From Bdellovibrionota bacterium FG-2 (GTDB taxonomy: Bacteria; Bdellovibrionota; UBA1018): DNA of 19,894 bases. How positions within the stretch are numbered: the first letter of the stretch is position 1; each line of letters begins with the position of its first letter. The notes under the pieces were generated by a model. It was given only the letters and a program-made list of their open reading frames with translations. It was not told the origin of the DNA and made no database searches. The position numbers and the translations under genes were made by a program. Where the stretch lies: NCBI GenBank assembly GCA_051382305.1, contig JBBCAV010000060.1, forward strand, positions 1-19,894, given 5' to 3'. Shown here piece by piece: positions 1-19,894 of the stretch.

Positions 1-97
1 GGTTGCGATTGAACATTTGAAAACAGAAAATTCACACAAAAACATGTCAACACTTTTTTTATTTTTATGAAAATAAATTAGACGGCTGGCCAATTAC
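1..97 (-). mobile_element. Terminus of a probable IS (IS66/ISBst12-like end), left copy, cut by the window edge
   Basis: Exact reverse complement of 19732-19828. It ends inward as ...GGCTGGCCAATTAC, i.e. a GTAA-N5-CAG terminus like IS66-family IRs. It supplies the TAA (96-94) that stops the neighbouring ORF. No transposase is visible in the window. Confidence 0.6.
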
Positions 98-654
98 CTT
101 ATTTCTACCTCAATTTGAGGCGGCTTCCTGCTCAAACTGAGGTGGCTTCCCCCTCGATTTGAGGGAGGTGGTGGACTGGGTGGAGGCGCCTCGTTTCGAG
201 GTGGCTTACCTTGAGGGACCTTACCATCTGGTGGACTCCAGACGGCCTGCGCCGTAATCCGCCAAAGATTGCCCCGCTTGAAATCCGTCTGGACGAGCTG
301 GATCAGCTTCGTCTCTCGAAGAATCTTCAGGGCACGCGAAACGGTGGCATGTGGCATTCCAAGCGCCTCGGTGATGAAGCCGATCGAGGCGCGAACCGTT
401 CCATCGGAGTCTGGGAATCTCCAGCCCTGACTGCTCAGCCACAGATATAGGCGAAACGAGTCGCCAGAAAGATCGCGTAGCTTTCGGTCACGAAATACGG
501 AATGAGCCAGCTGAAAGTAACCCCCATCTGCAACTCCAACTTTTCCTGATGGCTGGCAACACTGAGCCACCTCAGTGAGAGTTCTCTCTTGATTGGCCAC
601 TGTCATGGGGGATTGGACTTCACTTGGATTTGAGGTTCGTCCATTCCCTCTCAT
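94..654 (-). pseudogene. Winged-helix/HTH replication-initiator-like protein, C-terminally truncated by the terminal repeat
   Basis: N-terminal GYFQLAHSVF..LSGDSFRLYLWL..ASIGFITEALGMPHATVSRALKILRETKLI is typical of phage/plasmid initiator HTH domains. A Pro-rich linker encoded by iteron-like repeats follows. GAGGT RBS precedes the ATG. The stop codon lies inside the 1-97 repeat. Confidence 0.65.
108..210. repeat. Iteron-like array (putative oriV) inside the initiator gene
   Basis: CCTCAATTTGAGG (108-120), GCTCAAACTGAGG (130-142), CCTCGATTTGAGG (152-164), CCTCGTTTCGAGG (189-201). The first three are at an exact 22-bp period, and three of four are followed by YGGCTT. Confidence 0.7.
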
Positions 655-746
655 AGGACACCTCTGCTGTAGGCTGATTGAGTTGAAATTGGCCGGTTAA
701 GATTATGATTCGCAATGGCAATGATGGGGCAAAGTGATTGGTTCAT
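651..746 (-). CDS. 31-aa leader peptide (MNQSLCPIIAIANHNLNRPISTQSAYSRGVL) translationally coupled to the initiator gene
   Basis: Own GGAGAG RBS (755-750). Its TGA overlaps the initiator ATG (ATGA, 654-651). It is below the ORF-track size cutoff. Confidence 0.55.
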   Translation of the reverse strand: MNQSLCPIIAIANHNLNRPISTQSAYSRGVL

Positions 747-762
747 ATTCTCTCCATTCGTG

Positions 763-792
763 TTGACAGAGACGGCACCTCTCATTAAGAAT
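763..792 (+). promoter_or_regulatory. sigma70-type promoter firing antisense to the rep leader
   Basis: Perfect TTGACA at 763-768, 17-18 bp spacer, TAAGAAT at 786-792. Confidence 0.6.
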
Positions 793-797
793 AGAGA

Positions 798-943
798 AGT
801 ACCCGCCAGGAGCCGCGTAAAGCAGCTCCGGTTAAGGTTGCAAACATCAGATTCCGGACCTGCGAAGATCGAGATCTGAGCGAGTTAAAGTTTGAAAAGC
901 CTGGAGCCCATTTTAGTAGAATGGCTCTGGGCTTTTTCGTTTT
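798..943 (+). ncRNA. Putative ~140-nt counter-transcribed antisense RNA (ctRNA-like)
   Basis: Lies between the TTGACA promoter and an intrinsic terminator. Internal hairpins GGAGC..GCTCC (809-829) and TCAGAT..ATCTGA (847-879). No ORF-track ORF. Antisense to the presumed rep 5' UTR. Confidence 0.55.
895..943 (+). terminator. Rho-independent terminator
   Basis: AAAAGCCTGGAGCC...GGCTCTGGGCTTTT stem followed by TTTTTCGTTTT. Confidence 0.75.
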
Positions 944-1025
944 ATGTGATTGTGCGCACTAAGATACCTACCTTCTCATTCTTTTTTGCAGGAAGAGGCG
1001 CCTAACCGTGTGAGATGGGGGCGAC

Positions 1026-1285
1026 TTTGTCCTACGTTTTTCACCCGCCGGGAAGTAGGACAAAAACAGGCAAGAATCAGGAAATTCCCGAAATCTAGCG
1101 ACTGACCGGGAAATGCTGAAAGCCACAACTCGATCCTAACTGCTTGAATCGATTACGCTGCGTTTTCCACTTCTTGCTTACTTTTACTCGGTAGGATCAA
1201 CCAGATTTGTTTTTAAAATGGCTGGTTTGACGGGGACTGAATGAAATTAACTACTTAAAGTCGATTTTGTCCTATTTTAGGACAA
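1026..1285. other. attP-like recombination region with candidate integrase arm sites and IHF-like sites
   Basis: TTGTCCTA motif occurs four times as two inverted pairs (1026-1035/1055-1064 and 1267-1274/1278-1285). IHF-like TAACTGCTTGAAT at 1137-1149. A tRNA-like core lies between the pairs. The region is directly downstream of int-yhcG. Confidence 0.6.
1219..1236 (-). other. Candidate att core resembling a tRNA 3' end (…CCAGCCA, tRNA-Gln-like)
   Basis: Minus strand reads TCCCCGTCAAACCAGCCA followed by AT-rich TTTTAAAAAC. It fits T-stem 3' strand + acceptor strand + G discriminator + CCA. No 5' tRNA half is present. Confidence 0.45.
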
Positions 1286-6586: not shown

Positions 6587-7948
6587 TCATACTAAACCTC
6601 CAACAGCCTTAGCAGCCAAACCAGCGCCGGAGGAAACGCCCTCGGGCAAAGTGTCGGGCGCCGAATCCGAAAGCAACGGTCGCAGCCCCATAATGAGGGA
6701 GCCCGTGAAGAGCGGACCGATCATAAGTTGAAGCCACGAGTAGACGGCAAATGCCTGATAGAGCCGTGATGAAACGAGGGTCGCAGCATAAAGGGACACT
6801 CCGTCAGTGAGGTGCCCGAAGGCTTCGAGTGTTTCCAAGTTGAGCGCAAGGGTTGTGACGACGTGGTAGAGAAGCGCCCAGAGGGGATTCCAAAGGCAGA
6901 TGCTCAGGTAGGTCATCCACCACCAGACAACGGGTTTCCAATGGCCTGCGGCAAGAAAGAATACGAGGATTGGAAAAAATCCAACGAGAAGCATTTTGAG
7001 GAATCCTGAAACGTGCGGCGCGCGAGCGAAATGATCCGACAATTCCTGTGAGCGCTTTGCCGCGACGGCTGCGCCCTTAAGTTCGCGGCGGCCCAACAGA
7101 GAGAGCACACCGTCCATTGAAAATGCGCGGTTGAGATACTGCATGATTCGTCCGCCAGTGCCAGGAAGCTCAGCGCCCTTCTCGACGCCCATCGTGCCCT
7201 CGCGGCCTTCGAGGTAGTGGTTGACGAGGAGGTTCGACGTCACCCAGTTTTCATAGTTCTGGCCGAAGCCTTGCCAAAATCTAGGAATACCGGAGCCTTC
7301 GGTAACGGCTCGGTCGTAAACGGATGAGTGATGGTGAGCGTAGTCGGCGAGGGCTTGGTTCATTCCTTGTTTTAGCTCCAGGCAATTGCCTAAGGGACCG
7401 TTGCCAAGTGGAATCGCAGCGAGCTTGCGATCGGCGCCGCTTTCGCGTGAGAAGTAGCGGTCGAGGAAGTTGCCGTCGGTCGCGGTGTTATATTGCGGCA
7501 GAACTTTGCTCAGGCATTCCTCAGTGTAGAAGTCGATGCTTGATTTAAGCTCGGGGTCGTCGATGGAGTCAGACGCTGCGCCCAGCATCGCTTTGTAAAA
7601 GAAGTTTGCGGACGTGGCCTGCGGATTGGTCCGGCTAAATGTCGCGTCCACAAGCAGCGCCAGGGCGCGGGCGATCTCTTCAGCCGAGGCCGAGAGCAAT
7701 CGAAAGACGAGACTGACCCGGTACTGGTCTTTGGCGGTTGGGAGGTGATTTGTGATGTAAGGGTTCTGGGTCCACGATCCGCCTGTCATGTTTGCGGGGT
7801 TAACGCTTGCGTCGACCTTGAGGAGCGAGATTCCGACGAAGAGGCAAAATACAAGAACGACGACGCTGCCTACAGGTGCGCGTCGTGAGCGCAAGAAAAA
7901 CGGAACGTAGCGGGAGGCGAAGTGAACGAGGAATGTAAAGAAGGCGTA
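6587..7948 (-). pseudogene. traG: TraG-N-like inner-membrane mating-pair protein, 5' end missing
   Basis: Follows traH-like in operon order. Has TM-periplasmic-multi-TM layout with F..Y..EC and Y....LW.PLWALL motifs. The frame stays open upstream of TTG 7894 as hydrophobic YAFFTFLVHFASRYVPFF, with no ATG/RBS before the stop at 7969-7967. Confidence 0.7.
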
Positions 7949-8730
7949 TATTTCATCTGGTTCAGATCATCGACTCCGTTGATTTCAGCGCCTCGATCAA
8001 CAAGTAGTCTTATCATCTGACTATTATTCTGAACAGCTGCCAGACTTAAGGCTGAAAGAGTGAATTGAGGAACAAAAAAATGCTGATGGTCTTTTCCTTG
8101 TTCAGTAGCAATAATTTGGAACAAACTATTCGCGGAAGCTCCCTCATTTAAGGCTTGCTCTACTTTATTTACATCTCCATTTAGGATTGCCTGGCCCAAA
8201 CGTAAATCTTCAAGCGTATAACTTTGAAGCGAAACAAGTCCGATTTGAGGTGAGTACTCATTCACAGCAAGACGAACGTCTTTCATCATGCATAGGAAAA
8301 GCTTAGAGGAAACTTTGTAGTGTGAATCATCTAAATCGATCATCGAAAAATACTCATGTAACGCAAACGTCATGAGTGTGCTTTGGTCAGTTCGAATTGT
8401 ATTTAACCTGGTAAAATTGAGTTCAATTAAATGCTGATCAGGATGGTTAACGGCGTCTACTTCTTTGTCATCCAAAAAAGTTTTTTCGACGGCTACCACA
8501 CGAGTTGTGTCGATCGCGTTCTCTAGCTTTGTTAGATCTAATTCAGGAATTCGGCATTGATTGGACGTTTTCAAAAGGGCAAGTGCGCCTCTCGCAAACT
8601 GTGTAAACTCTAGGGCGAAAATTCCGCCACCACCACCACTATAGCCACCCTCAGCCGCATACAGTGAGGCCGACGAGCAACTAAGAACCATCGCAATAAA
8701 TCCGACAAACTTCATCGACTTCATGAACAT
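7870..8730 (-). CDS. Secreted protein with C-terminal ankyrin repeats, probably 3'-truncated
   Basis: Signal peptide ending LYA-AEGGYSGGGGG. Ankyrin-like AILNGDVNKVEQALNEGASAN and SALSLAAVQNNSQMIRLLVDRGAEIN. It breaks at KYTP and runs out of frame over traG DNA. GGGGG RBS. Confidence 0.75.
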   Translation of the reverse strand: MFMKSMKFVGFIAMVLSCSSASLYAAEGGYSGGGGGIFALEFTQFARGALALLKTSNQCRIPELDLTKLENAIDTTRVVAVEKTFLDDKEVDAVNHPDQHLIELNFTRLNTIRTDQSTLMTFALHEYFSMIDLDDSHYKVSSKLFLCMMKDVRLAVNEYSPQIGLVSLQSYTLEDLRLGQAILNGDVNKVEQALNEGASANSLFQIIATEQGKDHQHFFVPQFTLSALSLAAVQNNSQMIRLLVDRGAEINGVDDLNQMKYTPSLHSSFTSPPATFRFSCAHDAHL

Positions 8731-8886: not shown

Positions 8887-9705
8887 ATGAAGTTATCGAT
8901 GAGCGCGCTTAAAAATATCTATGAATATCAGGACTATAAAACCTATTTGCTGAAGTTTGCGCAAAGCCAGCCCAGAGGGTTTCGCAAGGATCTCGCGCAC
9001 GCATTAAACTGTCAAACTGCGTATGTTTCTCACGTTTTCAATGGAGAGGCCCACTTCAGCCTAGAACAGGCAGAAGCCCTGGCCCGATTCATTAACCTCA
9101 CGCCCGAAGAAACAAGCTATCTCATGCGCTTGATCGAGTTCACGCGGGCGGGGACCCCTCAGCTTAAGAAATTCATTTCGCGCGAACTTGCCCAATTGAG
9201 AGAAAAGCATCTCCTCATTAAGGATCGTGTAGCGGTGAAAGATTCACTGAGCCGGGAGGATCAAGCCATCTACTACAGTGCTTGGTACTATGCTGCGATT
9301 CATGTGGCTCTCACCATCCCCGCGCTCACTACGCGAGAGGCTCTTTGCCACTATTTTCGTCTTTCTTCCAAAACTGTAACTGAGGTTTTGGAGTTTCTTG
9401 TTTCGGTGGGCCTTGCGACTCAATCGGGAGTTCGCTATCAAATTGGAACCAAACAGATACACCTCGAAAAAGATTCGCCACTTATTTCAAAGCACCATAC
9501 GAATTGGAGAATGCAAGCCGTTAGAGCTTTGGAGCAAATGAAATTCGATGAACTTCATTTCTCATCTGTGTTCACTCTGACCGACCAAGATGCGCAAAAC
9601 ATCCGAGAAATTCTCGTTAAGGCGATTGAATCCGCAGTCGGGATCGTCAAAGTAGCAAAAGAAGAAAAGCTTTTCGCAATGGCCTTGGATCTATTTGAAG
9701 TCTGA
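8887..9705 (+). CDS. TIGR02147 / DUF4423 family HTH protein
   Basis: IYEYQDYKTYL..RKDLAHALNCQTAYVSHVFNGEAHFSLEQA, YYSAWYYAAIHV, SKHHTNWRMQA, FSSVFTL, LDLFEV. 272 aa. The family is expanded in Bdellovibrio and Fibrobacter. Confidence 0.85.
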   Translation: MKLSMSALKNIYEYQDYKTYLLKFAQSQPRGFRKDLAHALNCQTAYVSHVFNGEAHFSLEQAEALARFINLTPEETSYLMRLIEFTRAGTPQLKKFISRELAQLREKHLLIKDRVAVKDSLSREDQAIYYSAWYYAAIHVALTIPALTTREALCHYFRLSSKTVTEVLEFLVSVGLATQSGVRYQIGTKQIHLEKDSPLISKHHTNWRMQAVRALEQMKFDELHFSSVFTLTDQDAQNIREILVKAIESAVGIVKVAKEEKLFAMALDLFEV

Positions 9706-19442: not shown

Positions 19443-19731
19443 TTATGGCTTTCTCTCGGCCAACGCCCCCAGCACCGCGCCTGTCGCCTGATACCCCTGC
19501 ATCTTGAAAAATGACTTCTTTTGGAGATCCCCCACGAGCAACACGGGCACACTCTCGATCCCGTATTGCTTCAATTCTTCGGGTTTAGCCGAACTCACCG
19601 GAAAAGGGATCTTCGCTCGGGCGGATTCGTCTCGATCCACTTGGCGCAGCTCAATCCAGTAGCCGAGTGAGGACAGTTCACGAATCGTCGTAGAGAGCAT
19701 GTGTTCGCAATGCGGACAGTGTGAATCAAAA
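19443..19731 (-). pseudogene. Thioredoxin-fold CxxC protein (TraF/TrbB-like), N-terminus removed by the terminal repeat
   Basis: The frame extends upstream of the track ATG as FDSHCPHCEHML. It has the cis-Pro motif YGIESVPVLLV. The repeat begins right before the FD codons. Confidence 0.8.
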
Positions 19732-19894
19732 GTAATTGGCCAGCCGTCTAATTTATTTTCATAAAAATAAAAAAAGTGTTGACATGTTTTTGTGTGAATT
19801 TTCTGTTTTCAAATGTTCAATCGCAACCACGTTGCAAATATGGTTTCAAGCTAACTGCATGACCGCTGTGACCTTCGGAGAGGTGACCGCGAGT
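19732..19894 (+). mobile_element. Terminus of a probable IS (IS66/ISBst12-like), right copy, running off the window
   Basis: Starts GTAATTGGCCAGCC. The first 97 bp are the reverse complement of 1-97. An A-tract plus TTGACA (19779-19784) points away from the cargo, and an ATG at 19859 is open to the window end. Confidence 0.6.

Follow-up and report, generated by a model that had tools for sequence, protein, structure and literature searches.

Antisense control of plasmid maintenance is textbook biology, and to our knowledge such control is known almost only for the replication genes of proteobacterial and Firmicute plasmids. In the CopA-CopT system of R1/IncFII plasmids, the leader of a maintenance operon faces a short and strongly folded RNA encoded on the opposite strand, and a leader peptide, tap, is part of the arrangement. 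The ctRNA of alphaproteobacterial repABC plasmids is encoded between repB and repC and controls repC, in a system that includes an S-element. Work on the repABC ctRNA (Venkova-Canova 2004; Cervantes-Rivera 2010) is cited in PMC4485353, passages of which also mention the R1 system and describe RNAII of pMV158 as a 48-nt antisense RNA with a single hairpin, which overlaps the repB initiation region and whose 5' tail is decisive.

The locus described here lies in a window of 19,894 nucleotides, which is the whole of one contig (C60) in a 433-contig assembly of Bdellovibrionota bacterium FG-2. Its sequence has the general features of a cis-antisense RNA gene, namely a promoter of its own, an intrinsic terminator and a conserved structure opposite a coding transcript. 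An earlier note on this DNA had suggested a possibly undescribed ctRNA family, and the Rfam results agree with that suggestion. The whole window gave no match at gathering score, nor did the antisense and ctRNA models (CopA, ctRNA_p42d, ctRNA_pGA1, ctRNA_pND324, ctRNA_pT181, RNAI and others) find one at that score. Below threshold, the best match in 500-1350 was an unrelated lncRNA model (14.9 bits against a gathering score of 48), and in eight homologous loci the scan returned tRNA and tmRNA only. Full-text literature searches, covering listings and abstracts, brought up no account of small RNAs on Bdellovibrio mobile elements, or of an antisense RNA encoded ahead of parA. On balance, and with slightly better than even confidence, we read window positions 745-945 as the control region of a parA operon in a family of conjugative, tRNA-adjacent mobile elements of the Bdellovibrionota.

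The plus-strand RNA gene

The RNA gene has the following parts:

763 to 792, plus strand: small-RNA promoter, with -35 TTGACA (763-768), an 18-nt spacer and -10 AAGAAT (787-792), at 10 of 12 consensus matches
798 to 943, plus strand: predicted small RNA of about 140 nt, its start near 798-799 inferred from the -10
809-816 with 822-829, plus strand: hairpin P1 (RNAalifold)
847-853 with 873-879, plus strand: hairpin P2 (RNAalifold)
897 to 943, plus strand: terminator, with stem 897-912/920-934 and T-run 933-943 (RNAalifold)

The promoter proposed in the earlier note is present, and it owes its standing to conservation. Alone it is not above chance, as one promoter-like site was found in positions 1-1500 against 1.3 ± 1.1 expected from shuffled sequences. 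In the 31 homologues of alignment A6, TTGACA is kept in 30 and reads TTGACG in the other, and the -10 is AAGAAT in 27. TTGACA is conserved despite its position in an unpaired loop of the leader on the opposite strand. More generally, the four features that the earlier note had listed are at chance level by themselves, and the module stands above chance because the block that contains it is conserved.

The conserved block spans window positions 745-945 and was found in 32 distinct loci from Bdellovibrionota genomes and metagenomes. Within the same genome, positions 742-942 recur in three other contigs at 76-79% identity, and the block is present in 11 of 61 related genomes. A scan of species-representative genomes with the pattern of invariant motifs gave 25 loci, 16 of which were judged true by inspection; all 16 belong to Bdellovibrionota, Oligoflexia or Bacteriovoracaceae records. 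The same pattern gave 17 loci in metagenomes, seven of them true. Three of the copies (L037, L040 and L049) belong to the record of the isolate Bdellovibrionota bacterium FG-1. Inspection led us to discard as chance the remaining matches (9 of 25 and 10 of 17), which came from Aminicenantes, Sulfurimonas, Lachnospiraceae, an archaeon and others. At blastn sensitivity, nothing similar to 735-945 was found among PLSDB plasmids.

After removal of duplicates, 25 complete sequences (alignment A2) were used to build a covariance model (R1), with which the window scores 120 bits. The model search found seven more divergent copies (L075, L076, L077, L078, L103, L104 and L079), and true members in 7 of 151 sampled genomes of the phylum. 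Weak matches of 28-38 bits occurred in 33 genomes. When 24 weak-match loci were fetched and checked, 23 proved to be ordinary terminators that lacked the promoter and parA, and one (L079) was a true member.

The predicted hairpins, terminator and RNA of about 140 nt, also proposed in the earlier note, are well borne out by folding and covariation. For the RNA 798-943 the folding energy is -53.5 kcal/mol (z = -3.9), a value that none of 200 shuffles equalled. Over the 25 sequences, 93.6% of helix cells are paired, against 31-50% when the arms are slid, and 14 of 25 pairs are changed on both sides, which none of 500 shuffles reached. Over 31 sequences the figures are 94.5% (30-48% when slid) and 17 of 25 pairs (again 0 of 500 shuffles), although these counts lean towards the model because the alignment was fitted to it. 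A simple terminator scan did not have the hairpin 897-934 and T-run 933-943 in its output.

The strand was read from wobble pairs, since a G-U wobble on either strand corresponds to mismatched C and A on its complement. The terminator has 34 plus-type wobble cells against one minus-type, and P2 has 16 against five; both were therefore assigned to the plus strand. P1, with four plus-type and nine minus-type cells, is undecided. In 28 of 31 loci, the terminator hairpin has its lower folding energy on the plus strand (means of -18.8 kcal/mol on the plus and -15.2 kcal/mol on the minus strand), and only on the plus strand is it followed by a long T-run. Among sequencing runs containing 560-1160, the one listed was of DNA type, probably from the source sample, and none was of RNA. 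With good confidence, these sequence patterns indicate that the block holds a real plus-strand RNA gene outside every Rfam family.

parA and its mobile element

To the left of the RNA gene lie:

651 to 746, minus strand: 31-codon open reading frame, a stump of parA (ATG 746-744 to TGA 653-651)
94 to 654, minus strand: truncated winged-helix gene, 186 aa, with its own stop codon within the IS end
1 to 97, no strand assigned: end of a multi-copy IS-like repeat, which interrupts the winged-helix gene

The 31-codon frame is present as the earlier note described it (746-651), overlapping the ATG (654-652) of the frame 94..654(-) as ATGA. Its reading as a leader peptide did not hold up, however, as no such peptide is conserved. 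From the equivalent ATG, a full-length ParA is encoded in 25 of the 30 loci with enough flanking sequence (267-293 aa, or open to the contig end), and the window retains 13 codons of it (codons 1-13, 746-708). The window frame reads MNQSLCPIIAIAN and then diverges; the homology with its closest relative, L013, stops at 706, the last 18 codons are unrelated, the Walker A motif KGGVGKT is absent and the length of about 280 aa is not reached. Among the 25 ParA loci, 24 have a canonical Walker A motif (KGGVGKT/S), and the ParA of L011 matches AAA_31 at 7e-45. The deviant is L013, where the motif reads NQRGGVEKTT instead of NQKGGVGKTT, and this suggests decay there too.

The region around the start codon is conserved beside the RNA gene in 30 of 30 loci with enough flank, including five in which parA is lost or replaced. 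In L027 and L075, parA is reduced to stumps of 35 and 56 codons, with the start region kept. The parA start of L020 is fused in frame to a winged-helix gene like that of the window, and L050 has a different, unrelated frame of 225 aa in place of parA, with the start region and control module retained. We also observed that, in L020 as well as in L046, L053 and L061, parA is replaced and the start region and whole control module are retained. The normal target of the module would thus be parA, the partition ATPase gene; in the window the module is, as judged from its sequence, intact and its regulated cargo genes are decayed.

The gene that follows the stump had been called rep, an identity that the protein comparisons do not uphold. 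Its best family match is below threshold (MarR_2, 21 bits against a cut-off of 27), and comparison with solved structures gave nothing beyond generic winged-helix regulators. The few homologues, of 250-300 aa, stay below the cut-offs of 28.7 bits for Phage_rep_O (scores of 19-25) and 20.3 bits for RepL (score of 17). For HTH_36, the true homologues P0003 and P0005 reach 17-19 bits, and the cut-off of 25 bits is passed (27.1 bits) only by a distant protein of L011. A comparison of the winged-helix protein with the 429-aa protein of L011 gave no significant result (E = 0.25). A replication role for the winged-helix gene is possible on this evidence. In the window copy, the IS end begins at residue 186 and cuts the protein short there. 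Within the coding region of the winged-helix gene (109-201) there are four palindromic 12-mers of the form CTCRWWYYGAGG, in a 22-nt register, with a related copy at 624-635. The winged-helix protein might bind at these 12-mers, as iterons or as a centromere.

The repeat end of about 97 nt is present at both ends of the contig, at 1-97 and, in inverted orientation, at 19729-19828, and the rest of the genome has about twenty more, likewise at contig ends. We take it to be an insertion-sequence end because the copies stop at a constant base and have a different flank each time. The window also encodes a MobA/VirD2-type relaxase, a MobC-like protein, TraG_N, TraC, TrbI, TraK, TraE and TraL-type transfer proteins, a tyrosine integrase and a YhcG/DUF1016 nuclease, a gene set that makes it part of a conjugative element. 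Two further proteins are encoded amid the transfer genes, one with ankyrin repeats (7870-8730, weak Pfam matches) and one with HTH and DUF4423 domains (8887-9705).

In four homologous loci (L010, L013, L014 and L017), the end of a second conserved block, block 2, lies 55-65 nt downstream of a tRNA-Ala, tRNA-Gln, tRNA-Asn or tmRNA gene, and this places the module at the tRNA-proximal end of integrated elements. The element end in these loci falls beyond the terminators of the tRNA or tmRNA genes themselves. The window differs from the four, as the nuclease and integrase genes come next instead.

The parA leader and its competing pairings

On the minus strand, the presumed leader of parA contains:

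1055 to 1151, minus strand: block 2, with a candidate parA promoter (-35 TCAGCA 1119-1114, -10 TAGATT 1097-1092)
942 to 973, minus strand: mini-ORF (SD-like AGGUAGG 973-967, GTG 959-957, five codons, TAA 944-942)
774 to 803, minus strand: leader hairpin S1, GGUACUUCUC (803-794) with GAGAGGUGCC (783-774), from pair counts and folding
750 to 798, minus strand: alternative pairing S2, UUCUCUAUUC (798-789) with GAAUGGAGAG (759-750), from pair counts and folding

A minus-strand -10, TATCTT at 966-961, had been put forward in the earlier note. The hexamer is there; it is not conserved, and only the closest relative, L013, shares it. No sigma-70-type minus-strand promoter with at least 8 of 12 matches was found at a conserved position, including inside the block. 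Block 2, which lies to the right of the terminator and is common to many homologous loci, has a candidate. Its motif TCGACA-N16-nAGATT is present in 14 of 24 loci, and a fifteenth row (L039) has the variant AAAATT. The -10 is poor (GAGATT in many loci), and the window has 7 of 12 matches. This candidate overlaps an inverted repeat, TTCCCGG-N14-CCGGGAA, and is followed by three TCCTAC-like repeats 11 nt apart; these features may be a promoter and operator or the arm sites of a recombinase.

Between block 2 and the terminator, on the minus strand, there is a mini-ORF. A strict rule for Shine-Dalgarno sequence and start finds it in 24 of 31 loci, where shuffles give 2.1 ± 1.3. The window is among the seven that fail, its SD-like motif and spacing being beyond the limits of the rule, and its mini-ORF was found by eye. 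Across the 31 loci the length ranges from 1 to 12 codons, including start-stop forms, and several mini-ORFs end in KPP-stop directly before the hairpin. The block-2 motif, the mini-ORF and the plus-biased terminator together point to a parA leader of about 340 nt that would run through the small RNA gene, and a terminator biased in this way would let minus-strand transcription pass more easily. Possibly, the 5' end of the parA mRNA is instead close to 803, in which case the overlap with the small RNA would be a few bases only. The long leader (735-1085) was also folded, and its long-range pairs were not trusted.

The pairing of 798-789 with 759-750, which the earlier note had seen in the window, was found to be conserved, with arms that change in step in divergent members. 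Two of its ten pairs are G-U, and its 759-750 arm includes the Shine-Dalgarno sequence GGAG (755-752). S2 cells are paired in 95.6% of cases against 41-58% when slid. Five of its ten pairs never vary; the arms double as the RBS and the promoter -10/+1 region, both of which are under constraints of their own. Four matched variants were seen (UCUCCAUUC/GAAUGGAGA, CCUCCAUUU/AAAUGGAGG, UCUUCAUUC/GAAUGAAGA and CUUCC/GGAAG), and the divergent loci with matched arms include L076, L077/L103 and L079. In S1, six of 14 pairs are changed on both sides, and 10 of 25 sequences leave one pair (16:35) open. The -10 of the small RNA has its complement in the loop of S1. S1 and S2 are mutually exclusive, as S2 uses part of the 5' strand of S1. 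When 26 of the 31 leaders were folded intact, the best fold contained S1 in 19 and S2 in seven; with the 5' arm of S1 deleted, this being the stretch that the small RNA would mask, S2 was in the best fold in 24 of 26.

We consider it slightly more probable than not that the small RNA and this RBS switch form a new cis-antisense RNA family that controls translation of parA. The parA mRNA would start farther upstream, perhaps at the block-2 TCGACA-N16-nAGATT site, and cross the small RNA gene, which would make the small RNA antisense to the parA leader. This overlap of transcripts is inferred from the minus-strand G-U bias in S1 (34 wobble cells on the minus strand against six on the plus) and from the candidate upstream promoter. 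With S1 formed, the RBS would be free; with S2 formed, it would be buried. The predicted 5' end of the small RNA can pair with the initial 5-6 nt of the S1 5' arm, and the duplex would take this arm away, so that the anti-RBS stretch pairs with the RBS. Neither parA nor the gene coupled to it would then be translated.

A broader reading, which we put forward tentatively, is that the tRNA-adjacent end of these elements carries an undescribed multi-part cassette, made up of the mini-ORF, a one-way terminator, the 140-nt antisense RNA and the two-state leader. Here the terminator would end the small RNA and let the parA leader pass, and the 5' end of the antisense RNA would invade S1 and free the anti-RBS strand. 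Such a cassette would be portable, because it is kept before other genes where parA has been lost (the window, L020 and L050).

The strongest competitor to cis-antisense control, although an unlikely one, is that the small RNA is real and acts in trans on other targets, or conveys immunity or incompatibility among elements that share a host, with S1 and S2 forming a separate thermosensor or protein-controlled switch. CCAAGA is conserved in the P2 loop, its CAAG being kept in 23 of 31 loci, and cis-antisense pairing by itself needs no conserved loop. Four diverged copies coexist within one genome, and the parA promoter upstream of the RNA gene is only a candidate. Against action in trans, the RNA gene adjoins the conserved start region in every locus with enough flank, even in the five without parA; its promoter is built into the S1 loop, with the predicted start inside the S1 arm; and the G-U bias points to minus-strand transcription across that promoter.

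We hold it to be distinctly less probable that S1 and S2 are DNA operators of a dimeric protein (ParA, the winged-helix protein or another repressor) that controls both the small-RNA promoter and parA, the RNA pairings being incidental. Each repeat lies beside or across the -35 and -10 elements of the plus-strand promoter, and both arms change alike in divergent members, as a co-evolving protein site would. Matched arm changes are thus expected for an operator as well as for RNA, and only the strand bias and the fit to the RBS would argue for RNA. The mismatches are strand-biased in S2 (18 minus-type wobble cells, none plus-type) as they are in S1, whereas DNA half-sites should be indifferent to strand; S2 covers exactly the Shine-Dalgarno sequence; and the two pairings compete for bases, with loss of the 5' arm shifting the folds from S1 to S2.

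The model of the earlier note, in which the RNA blocks a leader peptide coupled to rep and thereby sets plasmid copy number as in R1 CopA/tap, seems to us quite improbable. The ATGA overlap in the window speaks for it, and the full parA of L011 ends in the same overlap with the next gene, which makes translational coupling plausible. As a conserved design, however, it is contradicted by the full-length parA in 25 of 30 loci, of which the window frame is a recent stump. A GAGG of its own precedes the ATG of the downstream gene by 6-7 nt, that gene is truncated and has no match to an initiator above threshold, and no CopA or ctRNA family matches the RNA. Least credible of all is that there is no plus-strand RNA and the block is a structured 5' UTR of parA on the minus strand only, since symmetrical Watson-Crick covariation, the slight excess of minus-type cells in P1 and a minus-strand terminator hairpin that is still stable would fit such a UTR, but the plus-type wobbles of the terminator and P2, the invariant TTGACA-N18-AAGAAT at the right distance upstream and the plus-strand T-run would not.

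Comparison with described antisense systems

Cis-antisense control of parA, read in this way, would add a candidate RNA family with strong covariation, absent from Rfam and found in a little-studied predatory phylum. It would also add a different target, the partition ATPase encoded at that end of integrative conjugative elements which lies nearest the tRNA, and a different proposed action, a switch between competing hairpins rather than coverage of the RBS. The locus offers a testable handle on how these elements set the levels of their maintenance functions, and the covariance model can be used to annotate such elements. For the window itself the annotation changes, from "leader peptide" to parA stump and from "rep" to a truncated winged-helix gene.

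Membership in the R1 CopA/tap, repABC ctRNA and pMV158 RNAII families fails on every feature tested. The likeness to R1 CopA/tap lies in a short, strongly folded RNA encoded against the leader of a maintenance operon, and in the proposed effect on initiation of translation, passed on by coupling. In contrast to R1, however, there is no match to the Rfam CopA model in sequence or structure, the first regulated gene is parA rather than a leader peptide (a conserved leader ORF being absent), the RNA does not cover the RBS and would act through a competing hairpin, and the replication role of the downstream gene is only a possibility.

With the repABC ctRNA, the locus shares an antisense RNA within a maintenance operon that contains parA, and a target whose folding would decide downstream expression. 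It differs in that the RNA gene is upstream of parA, no RepC or ParB domain was found in the scanned proteins of the window, no ctRNA family matches and the host phylum is another. The resemblance to pMV158 RNAII is that the 5' end of the RNA is the part that would invade S1; here, however, the RNA has a length of about 140 nt, comprises two hairpins plus a terminator and ends before it reaches the RBS. According to passages of PMC4485353, a YUNR U-turn is usual in recognition loops; the P2 loop, read in the leader sense, is CUUG in 23 of 31 loci, the window not among them, which we treat as a lead only. Thus, set beside these systems, the locus is best described as a new family with a known working principle, an unusual target and an indirect action through competition between hairpins.
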